From contig OX638335.1 of NCBI GenBank assembly GCA_951812785.1, forward strand, positions 1,291,902 to 1,355,901: DNA of 64,000 bases, given 5' to 3'. Below are positions 10,760-63,093 of this stretch, piece by piece. The notes beneath the pieces were generated by a model. That model was not told the origin of the DNA and did not search any database. It saw nothing but the letters and a program-made list of their open reading frames with translations. Numbering within the stretch: position 1 is the first letter of the stretch; the number at the start of each line of letters is the position of its first letter. This stretch comes from an uncultured Gammaproteobacteria bacterium. GTDB taxonomy: Bacteria > Pseudomonadota > Gammaproteobacteria > UBA4575. The position numbers were made by a program, and so were the translations under genes.

Positions 10760-10935
10760 ATTGATATCCTATCAGTTCTACGGGTAGTTTTTATCGTTGC
10801 TATTTTATGACGAAACACCAATGGGAAAAAGCGAATCCATTCCCAGAGTACTACTTTACATTAACATCTTCGCATCTATTAATTATATTGTTTAATATCA
10901 GTACTTTATATCACTAATTTAAATAATGCTCAACG

Positions 10936-11568
10936 CTATTCAGCGCCACGAGTGGTCAAAACTTTATCAACCAAACCATAATCACGCGCTTCTTCGCTAT
11001 CCATGAAGTTATCACGCTCTGTATCTTTACCAATTGTCTCCATGGATTGACCCGTATGGCCCGATAACACACGATTCAATTGCTCACGAATCTTAAGTAT
11101 CTCTTTAGCATGAATATCAAAATCTGATGCTTGACCCTGGAAACCACCGAGTGGTTGATGAATCATCACACGCGAATGGGGTAGCGCATAACGCTTACCC
11201 TTGGTGCCGCCCGCTAACAATACCGCACCCATACTCGCCGCTTGACCAATGCATAATGTGCTGATATCCGGTTTAGTAAATTGCATAGTATCGTAAATCG
11301 CCATACCTGCAGTCACAGAACCTCCAGGTGAATTGATATAGATAGAAATATCTTTATCAGGATTTTCAGACTCTAAGAATAGAATCTGAGCAACAATCAA
11401 ATTAGCCATATGATCTTCAATGGGCCCAACAATAAAAATGACACGCTCTTTAAGTAGGCGAGAATAAATATCGTAAGCTCGTTCTCCGCGCGCTGATTGT
11501 TCAACGACCATAGGAACTAGATTCATCATCAGCTCTTGAGAATTTCCATTGTTCATAGCACTTTTCAC
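10936..11568 (-). CDS. clpP: ATP-dependent Clp protease proteolytic subunit ClpP
   Basis: 210 aa reading [40 protein letters not shown]..., with the catalytic Ser in GQAASMGA. Confidence 0.97.
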
Positions 11569-11577
11569 CTTATTGAT

Positions 11578-12867
11578 TTATTGGCGTTGTTTCACAATGT
11601 TATCAAATGGTTCTTTGTTTTCCGTCTTAATGACTTTCGCTAAGATCATACCCACCACTTGATCTTCCATCACTAATGATTCAACGCTAGCACGCGCTTG
11701 GTTATTAGTACTGTAATACTGAATGACCTGCTCACTGTCTGCATACTGACTAGCCAACTGTTCTATACGCTGATTGACCAATTGCGCATCTACTTGCATG
11801 TTTTCCTTGCTAACAATTTCACCAATAATGAGTCCCAATTTTACTCGACGCTTAGCTTCATCTTCAAACAAGTTATCTGGCAATTCAGAGTCTGTTTCCA
11901 TTTTGAAATTTTCCAACGCTTGTTTGCGAAGCGCTTCTACTTCTTGCCTGATCATAGAATCAGGCAGTGGTAGTTCATTATTTTCCAGCAAAACTTCCAT
12001 CACCGCTTCTTTAGATTTCACTTTCAACTGTTTTTGTAGTTCTGTGTTTAACGATGATTTAATCTTTGTTTTTAGCGCATCTACCGTTCCATCGACACCA
12101 AATGCACTTATAAATTCATCATTAATTTCTGGCAACACACCCTCTTCTACTTTCTTAACTGCAACATCAAAGGTCGCCTCTTTTCCCGCAAGCTCACTAT
12201 TTCCATACTCTTCAGGGAAAGTAACAGCAAAATTCTTATTTTCGCCAGCTTTTAGCCCCAACAAGTTATCTTCAAATCCAGCAATCATGCCACCATCACC
12301 TAATACCAATGGAAAATCTTCTGCTTTACCGCCTTCAAACTCTACGTCATCTACTTTTCCAATAAAATCTAGCGTAATACGTTGTTCATTCTTACAAGCA
12401 CCTTCTACTTCATACCACTCCATACGTTGTTTGCGCATTTGCTCTAGAGTGAGATCCACATCTGCATCTCTCACTTCCGAGACAGGCACAGTCACCTCAA
12501 GCTCATTGAAATCACATATAGTAAATTCTGGAAAAACATCAAATGTTGCGACAAAGATCGGATCTTGGCCATTCTCTACTTTTTGAGGTTCGATATTTGG
12601 CGCTGTTGCAGGACGTAACTTTTCTTGAAGAACGGCATCGCGATAACTTGCTTGCATTTCATCGGCCATCACTTCTTGATTAACCTGCGCACCATAACGC
12701 TGGCGCACAACATTCATCGGAACCTTACCCGGTCGAAAACCATCTATCTTCACTCGACCCTTCAAACTATTAAGACGCTGGCTTACTTCTTTCTCAACTT
12801 TATCTGTTGGAATGGTAATGGTAATTTTTCTTCCGAGCTCGCTCGTTTCTTCAACCGATACTTGCAC
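11578..12867 (-). CDS. tig: trigger factor
   Basis: 429 aa beginning MQVSVEETSELGRKITITIP, with an FKBP-type PPIase middle domain. It lies in the conserved position upstream of clpP. Confidence 0.95.
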   Translation of the reverse strand: MQVSVEETSELGRKITITIPTDKVEKEVSQRLNSLKGRVKIDGFRPGKVPMNVVRQRYGAQVNQEVMADEMQASYRDAVLQEKLRPATAPNIEPQKVENGQDPIFVATFDVFPEFTICDFNELEVTVPVSEVRDADVDLTLEQMRKQRMEWYEVEGACKNEQRITLDFIGKVDDVEFEGGKAEDFPLVLGDGGMIAGFEDNLLGLKAGENKNFAVTFPEEYGNSELAGKEATFDVAVKKVEEGVLPEINDEFISAFGVDGTVDALKTKIKSSLNTELQKQLKVKSKEAVMEVLLENNELPLPDSMIRQEVEALRKQALENFKMETDSELPDNLFEDEAKRRVKLGLIIGEIVSKENMQVDAQLVNQRIEQLASQYADSEQVIQYYSTNNQARASVESLVMEDQVVGMILAKVIKTENKEPFDNIVKQRQ

Positions 12868-12946
12868 TAATCACTAATCCTCAAAGGAAATATATAAATG
12901 GAGTTTGCCTTAGCCTAAACAGGCTTGATTTGATATTGATGATTAA

Positions 12947-13031
<85 letters not shown>

Positions 13032-13166
13032 ATAATCATCTACCGACTACAGCGTGCTAGTATAACTTGAAATACGTCCGATAGTTAGATGCTATCCCAC
13101 TAGCAATATAAGACTGGCTACTCAGTAGCCATACCGATATTTAACAACAAGTAACAAATAAATCAT

Positions 13167-14033
13167 ATGGCCCGAGTCTGTATTATTGTTATCTATTTTT
13201 TTATTATCTGCACATTTGGTTGCTTGCTCGCCTATCCTATCCACCTCATCAGCGGCGCAAATTTCGAGCGCATCTTATCCCGAACAATATTAATTTTAGC
13301 GGCTTTACTATTTTACCCAACGTGTCGATTATTAAACATAAACAACTTCATCTCATTAGGTTTTAGTCGGGAAAATATCACTTCAACCGCAGTTCGCGCA
13401 TGGTTAATTGGTGTAGTCATGCTGACGCCCATTTCTATATTTTTTCTGTCTTGCGAATTCAGATTATGGGAACCGGCCCCACAAAATTTACTAGAACCCT
13501 TAACAGTCATTGCTAGCGCAATTATATCCGGATGCATTATTGGCTTAATTGAAGAAACTTTATTTCGCGGTTTACTTCAATCACAACTAAGTACAACAAT
13601 GAATTCATTGTGGGCAATCATTATTGTTAGCACTATCTATAGTAGCGTTCATTTTCTGCAAGCGCCTGAATTTGATTCAACACTCACTATTCATTGGTAT
13701 AGCGGATTCACATTGCTATCTTCAGCATTGGCAAACATTAGCAACTCAAGTGCATTTTTATTAGATGCTTGGGTTGCACTGTTCTTAGCAGGTCTATTTT
13801 TATCACTAGTACGCTTACACACTAATAATATTTTATGGTGTATTGGTATACATGCCGGATGGGTCGCACACATTAAAGTGTTAAAAAAATTTACTGACCG
13901 AGATAGTTCTGCTCAATGTGGAAACCTTGCCAGCAGCTACGATAGTTTTATTGGCGAGCTAAGCGCTGCCTGGATTTTGCTAATACTGGCTAGTTGGGCA
14001 TTACTACATTACCGCAAATCACTTACTGGCTAA
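13167..14033 (+). CDS. CPBP (CAAX protease / bacteriocin-processing, Abi) family intramembrane metalloprotease
   Basis: 288 aa polytopic membrane protein. It carries the three CPBP motifs: IEETLFRG (EExxxR), YSSVHF (FxxxH) and GIHAGWV (HxxxN/W-type). Confidence 0.7.
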   Translation: MARVCIIVIYFFIICTFGCLLAYPIHLISGANFERILSRTILILAALLFYPTCRLLNINNFISLGFSRENITSTAVRAWLIGVVMLTPISIFFLSCEFRLWEPAPQNLLEPLTVIASAIISGCIIGLIEETLFRGLLQSQLSTTMNSLWAIIIVSTIYSSVHFLQAPEFDSTLTIHWYSGFTLLSSALANISNSSAFLLDAWVALFLAGLFLSLVRLHTNNILWCIGIHAGWVAHIKVLKKFTDRDSSAQCGNLASSYDSFIGELSAAWILLILASWALLHYRKSLTG

Positions 14034-14662
14034 TCACTCGCTTCCAACCAATCAAATAAGGGTCTAATACCCAGATTTCATTTTCACGCCTGATATATGG
14101 AATATCGCGCGCATAGTCTCCTTGCCATATATTATTATCAAAATTCTGCTCGCCTAAATACAGGCGCTGTTTCTCTTCATCCACTTTCAACACTACCGCA
14201 ACGTGGCCTGTGCTATAAAACGCACGCGAATAAATCAATAGATCTCCGCGTTGTAAGCCATGTTGCTTATCACCATTCAAAAATATTAATAAACGGTTTT
14301 TGAGTCTGCTTATCAGGCGTAACCACATAATCTAATTGCCAAATATCAGCAGCCACATCCACATCACCATAGACAACTTTTTTATTAATTAACAACCACC
14401 TGCGCGCATACTCTACACACTGCCATTTAATTCCGGTAAATGTTTCATCAATTAAAAATGGTACGGGATTAACACATGTATTATTACAATTTGAGAATGC
14501 TTTAACGCCGAATGTAGATTCACCTAAAACCTCGCCGTAACCAACAGCGCAGTCTTGAGAACAGTACTGCGGTAATTCATCTGCATAACTGACAACAACT
14601 GGCACAAGCAGGCAATAAGTAAAAAATATTCGCATGAATCTCTTCATATAACCTTTACTCAA
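14023..14662 (-). pseudogene. secreted CHAP-domain amidase (glutathionylspermidine-amidase-like), split by a frameshift in an A5/T5 homopolymer
   Basis: Two overlapping ORFs, 14270..14662 and 14023..14328, together make one CHAP domain. A signal peptide (MKRFMRIFFTYCLLVPVVVSYA) is followed by the catalytic Cys in WQCVEYARRWL in the upstream ORF. The catalytic His (STGHVAVV) lies in the downstream ORF. Deleting one A from the run at 14279-14283 fuses ...KPFINI to LNGDKQHGLQRGDLLIYS... in frame. Confidence 0.7.
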
Positions 14663-14770
14663 GTTTATTTATTTCAGACACAATTTTCTTTTTGACCGCA
14701 TCTATAGCTTGATCTATCTGCTGGTAACTTTCATCTTGATCCAATGTGATGCCTTGCGCATATTGTTGCA

Positions 14771-14806
14771 CACTACAAACAAGGCAAACGAGTCTGTTAC
14801 ACAGAC
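14771..14806 (-). terminator. rho-independent terminator candidate downstream of the His/Arg/Pro tRNA cluster
   Basis: The minus-strand RNA would read GUCUGU-GUA-ACAGAC followed by UCGUUUGCCUUGUUUGU. It lies inside the Cys-rich 63-aa ORF at 14655..14846 in the ORF track, which argues that ORF is spurious. Confidence 0.4.
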
Positions 14807-15067
14807 ACTGGCATAGCGTAGCTAATATCCTTAACTGCCAGCACATGAGACTAACCAGATTTTATATCGCCTTAATCATCATTACTATCAAAGCGAGCAT
14901 ATAAAACCACTTCTTGTAGTTCAGTTAGCTCCTGCATCATAAAGAAACCAGCTTAGCGAATATTTTTATTCGACTCTGTGGATTCATTTCGCCTATGTTG
15001 ATTAGCGAACTAATAAGATCATGGAATGGGAATGCAGGAAAAAGTTGTTGTTATCGCATACGCAAGG

Positions 15068-15144
15068 TGGGGTGAACGATGGGACTCGAACCCACGACGA
15101 CTGGAATCACAATCCAGGGCTCTACCAACTGAGCTACGCTCACC
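15068..15144 (-). tRNA. tRNA-His (anticodon GTG)
   Basis: The reverse complement reads GGTGAGCGTAGCTCAGTTGGTAGAGCCCTGGATTGTGATTCCAGTCGTCGTGGGTTCGAGTCCCATCGTTCACCCCA. It has the extra 5' G characteristic of tRNA-His and is close to E. coli hisR. Confidence 0.9.
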
Positions 15145-15235: not shown

Positions 15236-15312
15236 TGGTGCGCCCGGCAGGACTCGAACCTGCAACCCCCGCCTTAGAAGGGCGATGCTCTATCCAGTTG
15301 AGCTACAGGCGC
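15236..15312 (-). tRNA. tRNA-Arg (anticodon TCT)
   Basis: The reverse complement reads GCGCCTGTAGCTCAACTGGATAGAGCATCGCCCTTCTAAGGCGGGGGTTGCAGGTTCGAGTCCTGCCGGGCGCACCA, with a CTTCTAA anticodon loop. Confidence 0.88.
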
Positions 15313-15431: not shown

Positions 15432-15508
15432 TGGTCGGGGCAGAGGGATTTGAACCCCCGACCCTCTGCTCCCAAAGCAGATGCGCTACCAGGCTGCGCT
15501 ATGCCCCG
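15432..15508 (-). tRNA. tRNA-Pro (anticodon TGG)
   Basis: The reverse complement reads CGGGGCATAGCGCAGCCTGGTAGCGCATCTGCTTTGGGAGCAGAGGGTCGGGGGTTCAAATCCCTCTGCCCCGACCA. The anticodon loop is TTTGGGA, and it is close to E. coli proM. Confidence 0.9.
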
Positions 15509-15682
15509 AACTGACTTGATTAACCATTCATCGAGAATAGTCGAGTGCGCGGAAGGATACGCGTAATAGATAGCAATCGTCAACCAATTCTAAAATAGAT
15601 TATCGAATAGCCAAATGTCTTTTCCAGCTGGCCTGTATTCATTATGATACACCGCTTAAATCAACCACCAAATAGGCACCCA

Positions 15683-16264
15683 ATGAAATCTATTTACATC
15701 TCTAGTGTTTTTATGTGCTTGTTACTAGCTATATTAGGAAACACAACCATGAGTGAAACAAATCCCAAAGTGCAACTTGAAACCAGCAAAGGCAATATTG
15801 TTATCGAGTTAAATGCTGAAAAAGCACCCAAGTCAGTAGACAACTTCCTAACGTACGTAAAATCAGGCCACTATGATGGCACCATCTTTCATCGTGTGAT
15901 CCCTGCTTTCATGATTCAGGGCGGCGGCTTTGATGGTGACATGAAACAGAAAACTACCAATGCAACTATTCAGAACGAAGCTAATAATGGGCTTAAAAAT
16001 GTTAAAGGCTCTATTGCTATGGCACGCACATCAGCGCCTCATTCCGCAACAGCGCAGTTCTTCATCAACGTCGCTGACAATGCTTTTCTAGATTTCACTA
16101 GCGAGTCTCCACAAGGTTGGGGTTATGCAGTATTCGGCCAAGTCACTGAAGGATTAGATATCGTATCGACCATTGAAGAAGTCACCACAGGCAATCAGGG
16201 CGGCCATCAAGACGTACCTATAGAACCTGTTGTTATCCAAAAAGCTACTTTACTGGAGCAATAA
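15683..16264 (+). CDS. ppiA: periplasmic cyclophilin-type peptidyl-prolyl cis-trans isomerase (PpiA-like)
   Basis: The signal peptide [19 protein letters not shown] is followed by the cyclophilin core [14 protein letters not shown]...[21 protein letters not shown]. The start is placed at the Met at 15683 rather than the ORF-track start at 15644. Confidence 0.85.
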
Positions 16265-41827: not shown

Positions 41828-43880
41828 ATGAATCAAACATTAAAAATATTGGTGATTGACCAAGATGCAAACAATGCTGACAATATTGTGCGAACAATAA
41901 AATCAGCAGGTTTTGCGGTGCAAAAGACCATTGTTTCATCCAAAGAGCAACTCGAAGAAGTAAAAAATTTAGAGATAAATCCTCACATTACCATTCAAAC
42001 TAACAATATTAGTGAGCTAGGCATCCGAGATACTCGCTCTTGCTTTACGACAGATTCTCACGAAGCACCGATAGTTGCACTTTGTGAAGACGCATCTACC
42101 CAGCAATCAAAATTATTCATGGATGGTGCCCATACTGTACTACCTTACAATGACAGCGAACAGTTAAAACACGTGACGTCACGTCTTGCGCAGACAGAAT
42201 TTTACATTCAGGCCTTAAAAGCACAAGCAGATAACTATATAGAACTAAGTCAACGTTACAATAAAATTCTTGATAACTCACGCGACGCCATCTGTTATAT
42301 CCACGAGGGATTACATACTTACGCTAATGCATCATATTTAAAATTATTCGAAATTGAAGACTTCAAAGACGCAAGCGTATTATCAATATTAGAATTAGTG
42401 TCACCTGATGACAAAGCATCATTAAAATCGATACTAAAAGACGTTAGCAAGAATCACACTTCCGGAACTACTAGCCTAAGTTTTAAATCAGGCGATGAAT
42501 TTTTCTATCCCGATATCGAATACAGTCCGATATTAATTGATGGCGAGACCTGCGTACAATTTATATTGCACATGCAAACAAGTGAACCCAAAGACCTGCA
42601 AGAGCAGTTTAGTTATATTAATGAGCATGAAGCTGGTTTCTCCCACAAAAAAATCGTTTACTGACAAAATCCAAGAAGCAATTAAATTTGCCCAAGCTGG
42701 AAAAATTCCGTCGACTTATATTCAGATTGACATTGCCAATATCGATGCCATCAGAGATCAATTTGGTATCAGTGCAATTGACAAGCTGAACTCACATATA
42801 GCTGAAGCGCTTAAACAAGTATGTAACGACGAGGAAGTACTTGGAAAAATCAATGACAAATCATTCGCCATACTGACTTCCGAGAATAACGAAAATAAAC
42901 TAGTTGCATTAGGCGCATGCCTTAGAGATGCAATCGACAAAAATCCAGCCACAACCAAAAACCAAAAGATTTCTCCGGAGTTATATATAGGCGCCACATC
43001 ATTAGGTCTAGACCTGAGAAAAGTCACAGATGTTTTATCTACAGCTAAATCAGCATGTGACCATGCCTGGGAAAATAAAATGCAGGAACTTTATATTTTC
43101 GCTGAAGAATCACGTAGCCTGACTGGCACATTCCTGGATCAAAAATGGAAGCAAGAGTTACAAGATGCTACTCGCGAAAATAGATTTCTACTATTAGTCC
43201 AGCCGATTGTTAGCATTAATGGAAAAACTGAGAATCGTTACCAAATATATACTCAGCTAGTCAGCAAAGAAGGTGCAAAAATTTCTTTGGCCGAGTTGCT
43301 ACCAAGTATAGAGAGAGCAAACGTGTCAATAATGCTTGACCGCTGGGTAGCAACCACAGCAATTAAAAAACTTGCTGAACATACTGATAAAAGTCCTAAA
43401 TCTCAGTTTTTCATTAAATGAACTACAGGTGCTTTAAACGATCAACAATTCGCAGTATGGTTAGAAAAACAATGTAAAAGCAATAATGTCGATCCATCTA
43501 GGCTAGTCTTTAATATGCGTGAAGAAAGCATCATTAGCCACTTAAAAGATTCGCGCGAATTCGCAGCTCAGTTACAACAGCTTGGTTGTCAAATTGCTAT
43601 TGATGCATTCGGAATCAGCCGAGAGCCAGAAAAGATTCTATCGATGATTCCTGCCAGTTACTTAAAGCTAAGTTTTCAGCTAATGGCCAGCCTTAAGAAT
43701 GGTGATAAAGAGCGCATTGAAGAGATTAGACATATATGCAAACAGGCAAAACAGAAAAATACTATGATAATCGCACCATTCGTAGAATCTGCAGAAGCTT
43801 TACCTCAGATTTGGTCAGTCAATGTTGATTTTGTTAGCGAAGACTTCTTCTGCGAGCCTGACGAGAACTTAAGTTACAAC
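41828..43880 (+). pseudogene. FimX-like c-di-GMP protein (REC-PAS-degenerate GGDEF-degenerate EAL), disrupted by a frameshift and an in-frame TGA
   Basis: Three track ORFs concatenate into one protein of about 690 aa. They are 41828..42664 (REC-like KILVIDQD... plus PAS), 42537..43421 and 43515..44168. The middle ORF carries a GGDEF-like domain with NDKSF in place of GGDEF, and the EAL start with QIY in place of EAL. The last ORF carries the rest of the EAL domain, IDAFGIS...IAPFVES...VDFVSEDFF. ORF A joins ORF B through a -1 shift in the A7 run at 42647-42653. ORFs B and C are in the same frame and are separated only by the TGA at 43419-43421. The 3' limit is uncertain. The open frame runs antisense through htpX to 44168, but the EAL homology ends near 43880. 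Confidence 0.65.
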
Positions 43881-44758
43881 TTCTCTAGCGCTGCAATCCG
43901 TTGTGCTAGCGGCGGATGCGACATTAGTAACTTCTGCAAACCTCCTTTAACTCCACCTGATATTCCAAATGCCGCCAATTCGCCAGGTAAACTTTCAGGC
44001 TCATGCGCAGATTGTAATCGTCGCAATGCTGCAATCATATTTTGTTTACCAGCAAGTTCAGCGCCACTTATGTCAGCACGATATTCTCTTCGGCGCGAAA
44101 ACCATTTAGCAATAATGGCCGCCAAAATACCTAGCACCACTTCAGCAACAATACTTCCTATCCAATAGCCTGGACCTATGCCGCGTTCAATTTTAAATAC
44201 AGCACGGTCTATTAACATACCGATAATACGAGAAAACAAAATTACAAAGGTATTCAGCACTCCTTGTAACAGACCCATGGTAACCATGTCACCATTTGCC
44301 ACATGACTCACTTCGTGACCTAATACAGCTTCTACTTCGTTTTTAGACATGGATTGCAGTAGACCTGTGCTGACAGCTACTAAGGCAGCGTTTTTATTCA
44401 TGCCTGTGGCAAATGCGTTCGGTTGTGGTGATTGAAATACCCCGACTTCCGGCATTCCGATACCCGCCTGCTCAGCTTGTTTGCGAACCGTTTCTACTAA
44501 CCATCGCTCGCTATCGTTTTGCGGTGATTCAATTACTTGCACTTTCATGCTTCGCTTAGCCATCCATTTAGATATCGCTAAGGAAATAAACGAGCCACCG
44601 AAGCCCATCACTAAGGCCATAATCAGTAAGCCGTTGACTTGGCCTGCCATACCCTGTTGCGCTAACCATGCATCAAGCCCAAGCACGCGAGAAGAAATAC
44701 TCAGGACGGCTAATACACCAAAGTTCGCTGCTAAAAATAATCCGATACGTGAAAACAT
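43874..44758 (-). CDS. htpX: heat-shock zinc metalloprotease HtpX
   Basis: 294 aa with two N-terminal TM segments and the motif HEVSHVANGD (HExxH). The C-terminus reads ...MSHPPLAQRIAALEKL. Confidence 0.93.
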   Translation of the reverse strand: MFSRIGLFLAANFGVLAVLSISSRVLGLDAWLAQQGMAGQVNGLLIMALVMGFGGSFISLAISKWMAKRSMKVQVIESPQNDSERWLVETVRKQAEQAGIGMPEVGVFQSPQPNAFATGMNKNAALVAVSTGLLQSMSKNEVEAVLGHEVSHVANGDMVTMGLLQGVLNTFVILFSRIIGMLIDRAVFKIERGIGPGYWIGSIVAEVVLGILAAIIAKWFSRRREYRADISGAELAGKQNMIAALRRLQSAHEPESLPGELAAFGISGGVKGGLQKLLMSHPPLAQRIAALEKL

Positions 44759-62012: not shown

Positions 62013-63093
62013 GAGAGTTACCCGTTTTGATAAAGGTGTTGAAATCTTTAAATCAAACCAAAAAGGCAGGTAACTCTCATGCTTGATACTAACAATCCAA
62101 TCCTTAAACACAAGGCGGGCTTGCTCAACTTAGCAGAAGAACTGGGCAACGTATCTAGCGCCTGTCAAGTCATGGGGGTGTCGCGAGACACATTCTATCG
62201 TTATCAACAGCGGGTTGAAGAAGGTGGCATTGACTCACGGATTGACAAGAGTCGTAGAACAGCCGATGTTAAAAACCGTGTGGATGAACCCACAGCACAT
62301 GCAGGGGTTACGTCAGCGATTGAACAGCCCGCGGTTGGGCAACATCGAAGCAGCAATGAACTGGTGTGTTTATCGCTGGTAGCGGTGTGCGTTGCGTTTG
62401 GCTGCGCCATACTCTAGAGCACTTCAAGAAACGACTCAAAGCACTCGAAGAAGAAATTGCCAAGGAGGGCATTATCTTAAGCGATGCACAGATCGCCGCC
62501 CTTGAGAAACAGGATGACGAGGCCTGTGGTGAGATTGACACGGCACATCCTGGTGACTTAGGCAGCCAGGATACGTTTTACCTAGGCCACCTCAAAGGTG
62601 TTGGTCGGCTATACCAGCAAACGTTCGTAGACACCTACAGCAAGATCGCCTTTGCGGCACTCTACACGACTAAGACGCCGATTACCGCCGCAGACCTACT
62701 CTTTGATGAGGTGCTACCGTTTTTTGAAAAGCATGCCTTGCCGATGCTACGTAGTTTAACCGACAGAGGCACAGAATATTGTGGGCGCGTGGAGCATCAT
62801 GACGATCCGTGATACCTGGCCATTAACGACATTGATCACCGCAAACCCATGGCATCTCTGAATGAGTTTTATCAAATTACCTTCAGGAAAAAACGGTACT
62901 CAACCAGGGAGGATTGACCAAAAGATCAAGACAACTGGATAGAAACTGATCACAATGAACGCACTCATCAAGGCAACATGGGCGGTGGTAGAATACCCAT
63001 GGACAGGTTAATGGATGGTAAATTGATTTGGGCTGAAAAGAATTTAGCTCACATCTAAACTGACAGACTCCTATCAATAACCGGTAACGGTAC
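62013..63093 (+). mobile_element. IS481-family insertion sequence (about 1.08 kb) with a decayed transposase
   Basis: The imperfect terminal inverted repeats are the left IR TTACCCGTTTTGATAAAGGTGTTG (62018-62041) and the reverse complement of 63064-63090, TTACCGGTTATTGATAGGAGTCTG. Between them lies a transposase split over at least two frames plus in-frame stops. It has an HTH domain (MLDTNNPILKHKAGLLNLAEELGNVSSACQVMGVSRDTFYRYQQ) and a DDE core (...TDRGTEYCGRVEHHDDP*YLAINDIDHRK...RED*PKDQDNWIETDHNERTHQGNMGGGRIPMD). The family assignment is from memory of IS481 and ISL3-like transposases. Confidence 0.7.
62079..63058 (+). pseudogene. IS481-family transposase pseudogene (frameshift near 62366-62417; in-frame TGA at 62810-62812 and 62915-62917)
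   Basis: Track ORFs 62079..62417 (frame 0) and 62366..62812 (frame 2) overlap. Frame 2 continues through two TGA codons to the TAA at 63056-63058. The transposase-like sequence persists across both stops. Confidence 0.7.

Follow-up and report, generated by a model that had tools for sequence, protein, structure and literature searches.

This study concerns the 2036-nucleotide (nt) spacer between the genes for tRNA-Leu(TAG) and tRNA-His(GTG) in a 64,000-nt stretch of DNA (the window) from a small (~2.2 Mb) marine gammaproteobacterial genome. The spacer holds a gene for a CPBP (Rce1-like) intramembrane protease and, converging on it, a frameshifted gene for a CHAP amidase. Comparison with related loci makes it likely, in our judgment, that an old gene insert, inherited vertically within a formerly contiguous tRNA operon, is found here in its most eroded state known. 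It is the furthest-eroded state seen: an HDOD gene has been deleted, a gene for a small membrane protein is dead, and CHAP is interrupted. We conclude that CPBP and CHAP are ordinary envelope-enzyme genes in a decaying native locus, and not a recently acquired weapon-and-immunity island. All coordinates are on the numbering of the full window, with (−) for the minus strand; features are collected in Table 1.

The tRNA genes were called with ARAGORN and Rfam, and both agreed on four minus-strand tRNAs around 13032–15067. This interval is exactly the Leu-His spacer, so its placement by the initial annotation of this DNA, between tRNA-Leu(TAG) and a His-Arg-Pro cluster, was accurate. The minus-strand order is Pro, Arg, His, the 2036-nt spacer, and Leu, followed by tig (11578–12867, beginning 79 nt downstream of tRNA-Leu), clpP, clpX, and lon. 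On the other flank, ppiB and lpxH, identified by their Pfam families in relatives, diverge from the tRNAs. An Rfam scan of the whole window found six tRNAs only and no match inside the spacer.

Relatives and outgroups were gathered by using the trigger factor (Tig) of the window as query against species-representative genomes. In Gynuella (L019) the four tRNAs are contiguous, Pro(tgg)-Arg(tct)-His(gtg)-Leu(tag), with spacers of 36, 23, and 58 nt; the cluster lies 129 nt upstream of tig and ppiB is nearby. Thioalkalivibrio (L016) has Pro-Arg-His-Lys-Leu upstream of tig. The tRNAs of these two loci are identical to those of the window at 66–83 of 85 positions for Leu, the Thioalkalivibrio copy within its contiguous cluster reaching 83/85, and at 68–72 of 76–77 positions for the others. 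Because the anticodons and their order in the Gynuella and Thioalkalivibrio clusters equal those of the window, the flanking tRNAs probably once formed one operon, Pro(UGG)-Arg(UCU)-His(GUG)-Leu(UAG), located just upstream of tig, as the initial annotation had supposed in proposing a split ancestral tRNA operon. The remaining outgroups carry Pro-Arg-His-Pro (Catenovulum, L021) or only Leu (Methylobacter, L018 and L020, and the metagenome-assembled genome L022) upstream of tig. A literature search turned up no description of a Pro-Arg-His-Leu-tig cluster.

The age of the insert was examined in a core clade of relatives (L001–L004, L008–L013, L015, and L093–L095) with Tig proteins 71–87% identical to that of the window; L014 also belongs to this clade, its contig stopping just upstream of tig. 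CPBP was found in every core-clade locus covering the site (10 in one tally), and CHAP in every locus, or by that tally in 8 of 9, that also reaches the CHAP position. The order tig-Leu-CPBP-CHAP-...-His-Arg-Pro-ppiB-lpxH was found in L001–L004, L008–L011, L013, L015, and L093. The convergent CHAP/CPBP pair was also present at the His-Leu site in L087/L088 (CP046178.1) and in ten metagenome loci, with Tig identities of 42–47%, which are as far from the window as the outgroups are. The initial annotation would have given up its reading of the islet for relatives that carry these two genes here with no sign of a contiguous tRNA operon; the two genes are indeed there in relatives, and the contiguous operon is there in outgroups.

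The base composition of the insert was native, as determined by the GC and codon-usage comparison that had been proposed for it. GC-content was 0.39, vs 0.42 ± 0.02, and the z-scores for GC at third codon positions (GC3) were −0.4 and +0.1; both measures fell within ~1.5 standard deviations of the 46 other window genes. In synonymous-codon score CPBP was the lowest of the set (z = −2.5) and CHAP the highest (z = +2.0), and because these are opposite extremes, there is no coherent foreign signal. No att-like direct or inverted repeats were found at the locus, where the only repeats were those of generic tRNA-tRNA similarity, and no integrase open reading frame (ORF) was found there. A tRNA-targeted genomic island was considered and rejected: there is no integrase and no att repeat, the composition is native, and the insert is present in every covering core-clade relative. 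From the same-site pair in lineages with 42–47% Tig identity, the native composition, and the lack of repeats and integrase, we regard the insert as ancient and vertically inherited. The notion of a discrete or recent islet does not survive this comparison, since the same genes occupy the site in the core clade and in deep lineages.

Relatives carry two extra minus-strand genes between CHAP and tRNA-His, one for a small single-pass membrane protein and one for a 311-amino-acid (aa) HDOD protein. The small protein is 123–152 aa long, varying with the gene call, and its gene shares 1 or 4 nt with the start of CHAP in L002, L004, and L010; a Pfam search with it gave nothing significant. In the window, 400 nt that could pass for empty spacer contain instead a pseudogene of this small gene, with four in-frame stops, two 1-nt deletions, and loss of the first ~30–40 codons, which encode the membrane segment. 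The His-Leu distance is 2.9–3.3 kb in L001–L004, L008–L011, L013, and L015; the window has therefore lost ~1.18 kb, including the ~0.94-kb HDOD gene, and tblastn found no HDOD similarity left in the window.

Erosion of these genes has also occurred in relatives. HDOD and/or the small gene contain independent stops or frameshifts in L011, L097, L098, L099, and L102; metagenome assembly may account for some of these lesions, though not for the in-frame stops. L001, L008, and L015 lack the small gene. CHAP and CPBP were intact in every relative examined. Because CHAP is tolerated without the small protein, the small protein is not an essential inhibitor of CHAP. The initial annotation had described the locus as decaying, and with HDOD deleted, the small gene dead, and CHAP frameshifted, the decay is more extensive than it described.

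A second broken gene was found elsewhere in the window, a PAS-GGDEF-EAL gene (41828–44168, +) now in three ORFs: 41828–42664 (PAS), 42537–43421 (GGDEF and the N-terminal part of EAL), and 43515–44168 (the C-terminal part of EAL). Its lesions are a frameshift, probably at the A7 run near 42640, and a true in-frame stop at 43419–43421; an M48 peptidase gene (43874–44758, −) overlaps the 3′ end of the pseudogene. This broken gene and the lost HDOD gene suggest that signalling genes are being shed.

The CHAP gene had been taken as one gene at 14023–14662. That interval is 640 nt, which is not a multiple of 3, and contains two ORFs in different frames (14270–14662 and 14023–14328). Translation probably begins not with the TTG at 14662 but with the ATG at 14647 (MKRF...), in line with the homologues. 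The reported 11-nt tail-to-tail overlap with CPBP was confirmed, with CHAP ending at 14023 and CPBP at 14033, and the same 11 nt overlap in L001, L004, L010, and L093. Where relatives read ATA-TTTTGAATGG, the window reads ATATTTTTGAATGG; all six aligned relatives (L001, L002, L004, L010, L011, and L015) have one base fewer. The tblastn matches change frame exactly at this run (14279–14283), across which the relatives' proteins read ...PF(I/L/K)xILNG.... The assignment to CHAP depends on the same base. As sequenced, the C-terminal fragment scored 21.2 bits against PF05257 (cut-off 26) and the N-terminal fragment had no match; with one T removed, the protein scored 33.9 bits (E = 4.4e-8), above the cut-off, and intact homologues carry PF05257. 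The family named in the initial annotation is thus recovered for the repaired gene and not for the gene as it stands.

The public gene call for CHAP in this genome is a 125-aa fragment (P0157), which indicates that the extra base is in the deposited sequence. The 75 CHAP codons downstream of the frameshift have 93% identity with L093 and a ratio of nonsynonymous to synonymous substitution rates (dN/dS) of 0.06 at a synonymous divergence (dS) of 0.5. Because these codons still look strongly constrained, any inactivation must have been very recent, and the frameshift would be either such an inactivation or an assembly error. A third explanation, in which the frameshift is programmed and the T-run allows full-length CHAP to be produced through +1 ribosomal frameshifting or transcriptional slippage, is scarcely credible. 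A +1 shift at AUU-U-UUG would yield the exact homologue sequence ...NILNGD..., and the zero frame stops within three codons; however, none of the six aligned relatives has the extra base, the run is only 5 nt long with no slow or stop codon at the shift site, and the upstream partner genes are dead or deleted.

Repaired CHAP matched PRK10507/NF007801, glutathionylspermidine amidase/synthase, over positions 47–179 of 619 (E = 1.1e-23), but at 83.3 bits vs the equivalog cut-off of 882 it is not the bifunctional amidase/synthase. Among solved structures it matched the amidase domains of Leishmania TryS (2vob/2vpm, E = 1.3e-13) and Escherichia coli Gss (3a2z, E = 2.9e-13; also 2io7), and these matches settle the fold. 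Residues C77, H148, and E166 are invariant in 27 homologues, with Cys77 aligned to the Gss/TryS nucleophile within the window motif WQCVEYARRW. The same 27 homologues share four invariant N-terminal cysteines (C29, C33, C54, and C58). The N-terminus is basic, followed by hydrophobic residues 7–19 and then SYA|DE, which is signal-like, in agreement with the signal peptide noted in the initial annotation. Because of this N-terminus and the four invariant cysteines, CHAP is predicted to be a Sec-exported periplasmic amidase stabilised by two disulfides, and to be a stand-alone relative of the glutathionylspermidine (GSP) amidase domain rather than a GSP amidase proper. Cytoplasmic glutathionylspermidine is unlikely as its substrate, since the protein is predicted to be periplasmic.

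The CHAP family is large, with at least 850 matching database proteins, the majority of them from uncultured Gammaproteobacteria of marine, sediment, and other environments. A literature search turned up no characterised periplasmic glutathionylspermidine-amidase-like protein. Records of the Joint Genome Institute (P0122, P0129, P0174, P0196, and P0218) name exported CHAP proteins of ~200 aa 'glutathionylspermidine amidase/synthetase'. Because these proteins have no synthetase domain and are predicted to be periplasmic, that label is probably wrong for both location and substrate.

The CPBP gene is intact. Its product scored 54.2 bits against PF02517 (E = 1.8e-14, cut-off 22.4) over residues 114–233, so that the original family assignment stands, and it aligns end to end with 287-aa homologues. 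The catalytic motifs E129, E130, and R134 (EExxxR), H162, and H229 are invariant in 29 homologues with identities down to 26%, and Y158 of (F/Y)xxxH is nearly invariant among them. A simple hydropathy scan gave about six hydrophobic segments, as for a multi-pass membrane protein. Relative to its closest relative, in L093, the protein has 89% aa identity and a dN/dS of 0.19; CPBP is under purifying selection. It fell below every NCBIfam equivalog cut-off: MrtS, 44 vs 130 bits; MrtJ, 27.7 vs 75; MrtC, 21 vs 195; and Mrt_core, 18.9 vs 100. The 142 relatives in its subfamily are labelled generically by their sources (YdiL-type or CPBP family). CPBP is an intact and probably active member of a gammaproteobacterial CPBP subfamily without prior characterisation. 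No bacteriocin, CTERM-sorting signal, or CAAX substrate was evident near it. The neighbours in the window and in relatives are tRNAs, tig, clpP, clpX, lon, ppiB, and lpxH, and so CPBP is not in a bacteriocin locus, although short bacteriocin-like peptides were not specifically searched for.

Similarity to L093 is mosaic over 10930–14260. In clpP and tig the nucleotide identity is ~82% (tig dS 1.07), whereas in tRNA-Leu, CPBP, and the 3′ end of CHAP it is ~90% (CPBP dS 0.29), with the switch near 12730–12880. This pattern suggests homologous recombination between lineages at this locus.

An immunity-plus-hydrolase or antagonism function had been proposed for CPBP and CHAP. Eighty metagenome loci encoding CHAP relatives were collected and typed by tblastn and ARAGORN. 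Eight belonged to the core clade (L097–L104); HDOD, small, CHAP, and CPBP genes were present in the six that were long enough, L101 and L104 being short fragments and L104 having no small gene. Ten loci with Tig identities of 42–47% had both CHAP and CPBP at the His-Leu site. Another five (L105–L107, L109, and L110), together with L091/L092, had Tig identities of 51–61% and only CHAP between His and Leu, with no CPBP; the Tig identity of L091 is 51%. In a further 36 loci, each extending at least 900 nt downstream, CHAP was located elsewhere, and none of them had a CPBP relative, tRNA, or tig there. Clustering of the ORFs that flank CHAP outside the tRNA locus brought out no partner that recurred; the neighbours were of many kinds, including porin-like, permease, and hydrolase genes. 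Conversely, CPBP adjoins tRNA-Leu without CHAP in L005 and L007, from lineages with 42–47% Tig identity. Since the two genes adjoin only at a single inherited site, where each can also persist by itself, these results argue against an obligate pair and strongly against a toxin/immunity pair, and we infer that CPBP and CHAP are neighbours by descent.

In the loci with CHAP alone (L105–L107, L109, L110, and L091), CHAP starts ~30 nt after tRNA-His and ends ~150–190 nt before tRNA-Leu. This start leaves no room for a promoter of its own, and the protein gene is fully embedded in the tRNA operon.

None of CPBP, repaired CHAP, and the small protein matched an anti-phage defence model of PADLOC-DB at E ≤ 0.01, and no bacteriocin, transporter, secretion-system, or defence genes were found in the flanks of the window or of the relatives. 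A type VI secretion amidase effector/immunity pair (Tae/Tai) or similar was considered and rejected, because CHAP has its own signal-like N-terminus and the flanks contain no secretion genes. A toxin-immunity pair was also ruled against, since many loci retain CHAP in the absence of CPBP and of the small protein.

These results bear on the proposal that the spacer is a horizontally acquired antagonism or self-protection module lodged between tRNAs, in which CPBP ('Abi') gives immunity to, or processes, the secreted CHAP. We consider it highly improbable. The two genes are adjacent and overlap tail to tail, tRNAs bracket the site, and the CHAP-side genes are decaying, as might be expected of a module no longer needed. 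However, the pair is at the same site in all covering core-clade relatives and in many, though not all, deep lineages; GC and GC3 are native, integrase and att repeats are lacking, and tRNA-Leu has its 5′ end towards the island. An entire clade keeps CHAP intact at this site with no CPBP, as do the 36 unrelated loci, so that CPBP is not needed for self-protection. With its own Sec signal, CHAP would act in the periplasm of the producer, and neither the neighbouring genes nor PADLOC supply a bacteriocin, transporter, secretion, or defence match.

Several observations weigh against the account of an old insert, inherited with its neighbours and now eroding. The contiguous tRNA cluster was present in only three of the seven outgroup gammaproteobacterial loci, and the polarity, with contiguous as ancestral, rests on parsimony without a species tree. 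In a comparison of 47 genes, CPBP was the least typical in synonymous-codon usage (z = −2.5). Joint transcription with the tRNAs, the promoters, export, and the two substrates are predictions. The frameshift lies in a homopolymer of an apparent long-read assembly (a single 2.16-Mb contig), and the decay of CHAP may be an artefact. Finally, the convergent CPBP/CHAP order has been kept across deep divergence (Tig identities down to 42–47%), with the 11-nt overlap in the core clade, and this order could reflect selection for linkage instead of inertia. The last two of these points correspond to explicit alternatives.

In one, CPBP and CHAP are real partners in envelope maintenance, with CPBP positioning, activating, or processing the hydrolase in the manner of SpdC-SagB. 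This is unlikely but deserves consideration, because the convergent arrangement has been held from the core clade (Tig 71–87%) to the deep lineages and the overlap is conserved. SpdC-SagB offers a precedent for a CPBP-family membrane protein in complex with a cell-wall hydrolase (bioRxiv 10.1101/2020.05.21.109470). Against partnership, the association is found at a single genomic site and is indistinguishable from inherited synteny. Each gene occurs alone at that site (CPBP in L005 and L007; CHAP in L091, L105–L107, L109, and L110), and most family members, in the 36 loci with enough flanking sequence, have no CPBP neighbour. The genes are on opposite strands, which precludes co-transcription, and SpdC is said to lack the catalytic residues that the window CPBP keeps.

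In the other, the living organism has an undamaged CHAP gene, long-read assembly introduced the extra base into the homopolymer at 14279–14283, and only HDOD and the small gene have been lost. This is a real possibility, although we lean against it. The lesion consists of one extra nucleotide in a run of five, a homopolymer (A7) also holds the window's other frameshift, and the single 2.16-Mb contig is typical of long-read assembly; moreover, the downstream part of CHAP is strongly constrained and CHAP is intact in every relative. However, both window frameshifts are in accessory genes that either adjoin a gene with substitution-type lesions or have such lesions themselves (four stops in the small gene next to CHAP and one in the EAL domain), which homopolymer errors could not produce, and the long housekeeping ORFs of the window show no evident split. 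The HDOD deletion and the dead small gene also indicate a transcription unit already being lost.

The fullest relatives carry a four-gene insert in which HDOD, small, and CHAP are co-oriented with the tRNAs and tig, and CPBP converges on CHAP. On the favoured reading of an old insert in decay, the tRNA operon promoter upstream of tRNA-Pro would drive Pro-Arg-His and, in relatives, would probably read into HDOD-small-CHAP. The conserved block at 13053–13112 probably serves tRNA-Leu/tig in one direction and the divergent CPBP, which would have its own promoter there, in the other. CPBP is predicted to act as a membrane-embedded glutamate-dependent endopeptidase that cuts an envelope or membrane-proximal substrate. 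Intact CHAP would use Cys77-His148-Glu166 to hydrolyse a periplasmic amide bond, possibly a glutathionylspermidine-type peptide-amine bond or one in a peptidoglycan stem peptide.

Table 1. Features of the Leu-His spacer and its tRNA frame, in window coordinates
Feature	Position	Strand	Basis and remarks
tRNA-Leu(TAG)	12947–13031	−	ARAGORN; Rfam, 55.9 bits; last tRNA of the proposed former operon
Conserved intergenic block	13053–13112		~60 nt, in the tRNA-Leu to CPBP interval; no Rfam match
Hairpin with T-rich tail, terminator-like	13115–13131	−	Between the CPBP start and tRNA-Leu; short, GC-containing; consensus scan and inverted repeat I3
CPBP (Rce1-like) glutamic-type intramembrane protease gene	13167–14033	+	Intact, 288 aa; Pfam PF02517
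CHAP amidase gene, frameshifted	14023–14647	−	207 aa once repaired; glutathionylspermidine/trypanothione-amidase type
Frameshift site	14279–14283	−	Homopolymer of 5: T5 on the coding strand, A5 on the plus strand
Small-membrane-protein pseudogene	14658–14991	−	tblastn with L002/L010/L004/L011 proteins, E = 1e-24 to 1e-39; nucleotide alignment
Residual spacer at deletion scar	14992–15067		Occupied in relatives by the small gene's 5′ end and by HDOD with the region upstream of it
tRNA-His(GTG)	15068–15143	−	ARAGORN, Rfam
tRNA-Arg(TCT)	15236–15312	−	ARAGORN, Rfam
tRNA-Pro(TGG)	15432–15508	−	ARAGORN, Rfam; first tRNA of the operon; divergent from ppiB (15644–16264, +)
Sigma-70-like hexamer pair TTGACG-18-TATCCT	15554–15583	−	Upstream of tRNA-Pro; candidate operon promoter; consensus scan only

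The conserved block was almost invariant even in relatives with a CPBP protein at 55% identity. Within it, the 16-mer TAGTATAACTTGAAAT (13058–13073) was exact in 14 core-clade loci, missing only from two too short to reach it; it occurs once in the window and in no deeper-relative locus compared. The block probably contains divergent promoters or regulatory/operator sites for tRNA-Leu/tig and CPBP. Site counts in the promoter and terminator consensus scans were not above those of shuffles, and the hexamer pair and hairpin in Table 1 are weak pointers only.

Genes have likewise entered the spacer between Pro and Arg in this tRNA operon, in L004/L013, L005, and L087/L088. In L004/L013 tRNA-Pro is duplicated and accompanied by a 245-aa protein with a hydrophobic N-terminus, and in L005 and L087 the spacer holds an AMP-binding/PP-binding enzyme with lipid-A-type acyltransferases. 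These gains indicate that the tRNA operon is a recurrent landing site. Far from the locus, at 62079–62812 (+), two overlapping ORFs with HTH_29 and a sub-threshold rve match (26.2 bits vs a cut-off of 32.6) look like an IS3-family-type transposase (orfA/orfB), the sole mobile-element signature noticed in the window.

The locus provides a clean case of protein-coding genes lodged in a tRNA operon and retained over deep divergence, and it shows stepwise gene erosion in a small genome. For annotation, CHAP should be flagged as frameshifted and 14658–14991 marked as a pseudogene; of wider interest, exported relatives of the GSP-amidase domain are numerous, and some are probably misannotated. A bolder reading, which we regard as quite unlikely, is that the secreted, four-cysteine, stand-alone CHAP relatives form an uncharacterised periplasmic enzyme family acting on envelope peptide-amine conjugates, kept in one deep lineage with a catalytically competent CPBP as a two-enzyme module transcribed through a tRNA operon. 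Peptidoglycan modified with polyamines, an exported amide of glutathione, and a glutathionyl-polyamine would be examples of such conjugates.

Among known systems, the amidase domains of E. coli Gss and Leishmania TryS are like CHAP in fold family, and their nucleophile motif QCVE[FY]ARRWL is nearly identical. Cys59 of Gss aligns with Cys77 of CHAP (an offset of 18), and the histidine and acid motifs GHV...EQN are conserved. In contrast to these enzymes, CHAP is a stand-alone protein of 207 aa without the C-terminal ATP-grasp synthetase. Its signal-like segment and four invariant cysteines are not in the aligned TryS, the Gss match begins downstream of that region, and Gss and TryS are cytoplasmic whereas CHAP is predicted to be periplasmic. 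The window CPBP passes the model of the CPBP/Rce1-like family (PF02517, formerly 'Abi') and keeps EExxxR, (F/Y)xxxH, and the third histidine, but is far under the cut-offs of the NCBIfam Mrt 'myxosortases' (MrtS, MrtJ, and MrtC).

The best precedent for pairing a CPBP-family membrane protein with an exported cell-wall-type hydrolase is Staphylococcus aureus SpdC, a CPBP-like membrane protein found in complex with the peptidoglycan hydrolase SagB (bioRxiv 10.1101/2020.05.21.109470). SagB, however, is a glucosaminidase and not a CHAP amidase. The CPBP and CHAP genes, moreover, occur apart in many genomes. SpdC is also reportedly catalytically inactive, whereas the window CPBP keeps its catalytic residues.

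For protein genes within tRNA operons, thrU-tyrU-glyT-thrT-tufB is a precedent, with tufB inside and co-oriented with the operon. The initial annotation had likened the flanking tRNAs to the argX-hisR-leuT-proM operon of E. coli. When checked directly, that operon reads Arg(ccg)-His(gtg)-Leu(cag)-Pro(tgg) and lies between thrP and aslB. It shares the four amino-acid specificities and the Arg-His-Leu core order with the window, but differs in overall order, in two isoacceptors, and in location, the window cluster being upstream of tig. We therefore consider it a loose analogue; what truly corresponds to the window's tRNAs is the contiguous Pro-Arg-His-Leu-tig arrangement seen in Gynuella and Thioalkalivibrio.

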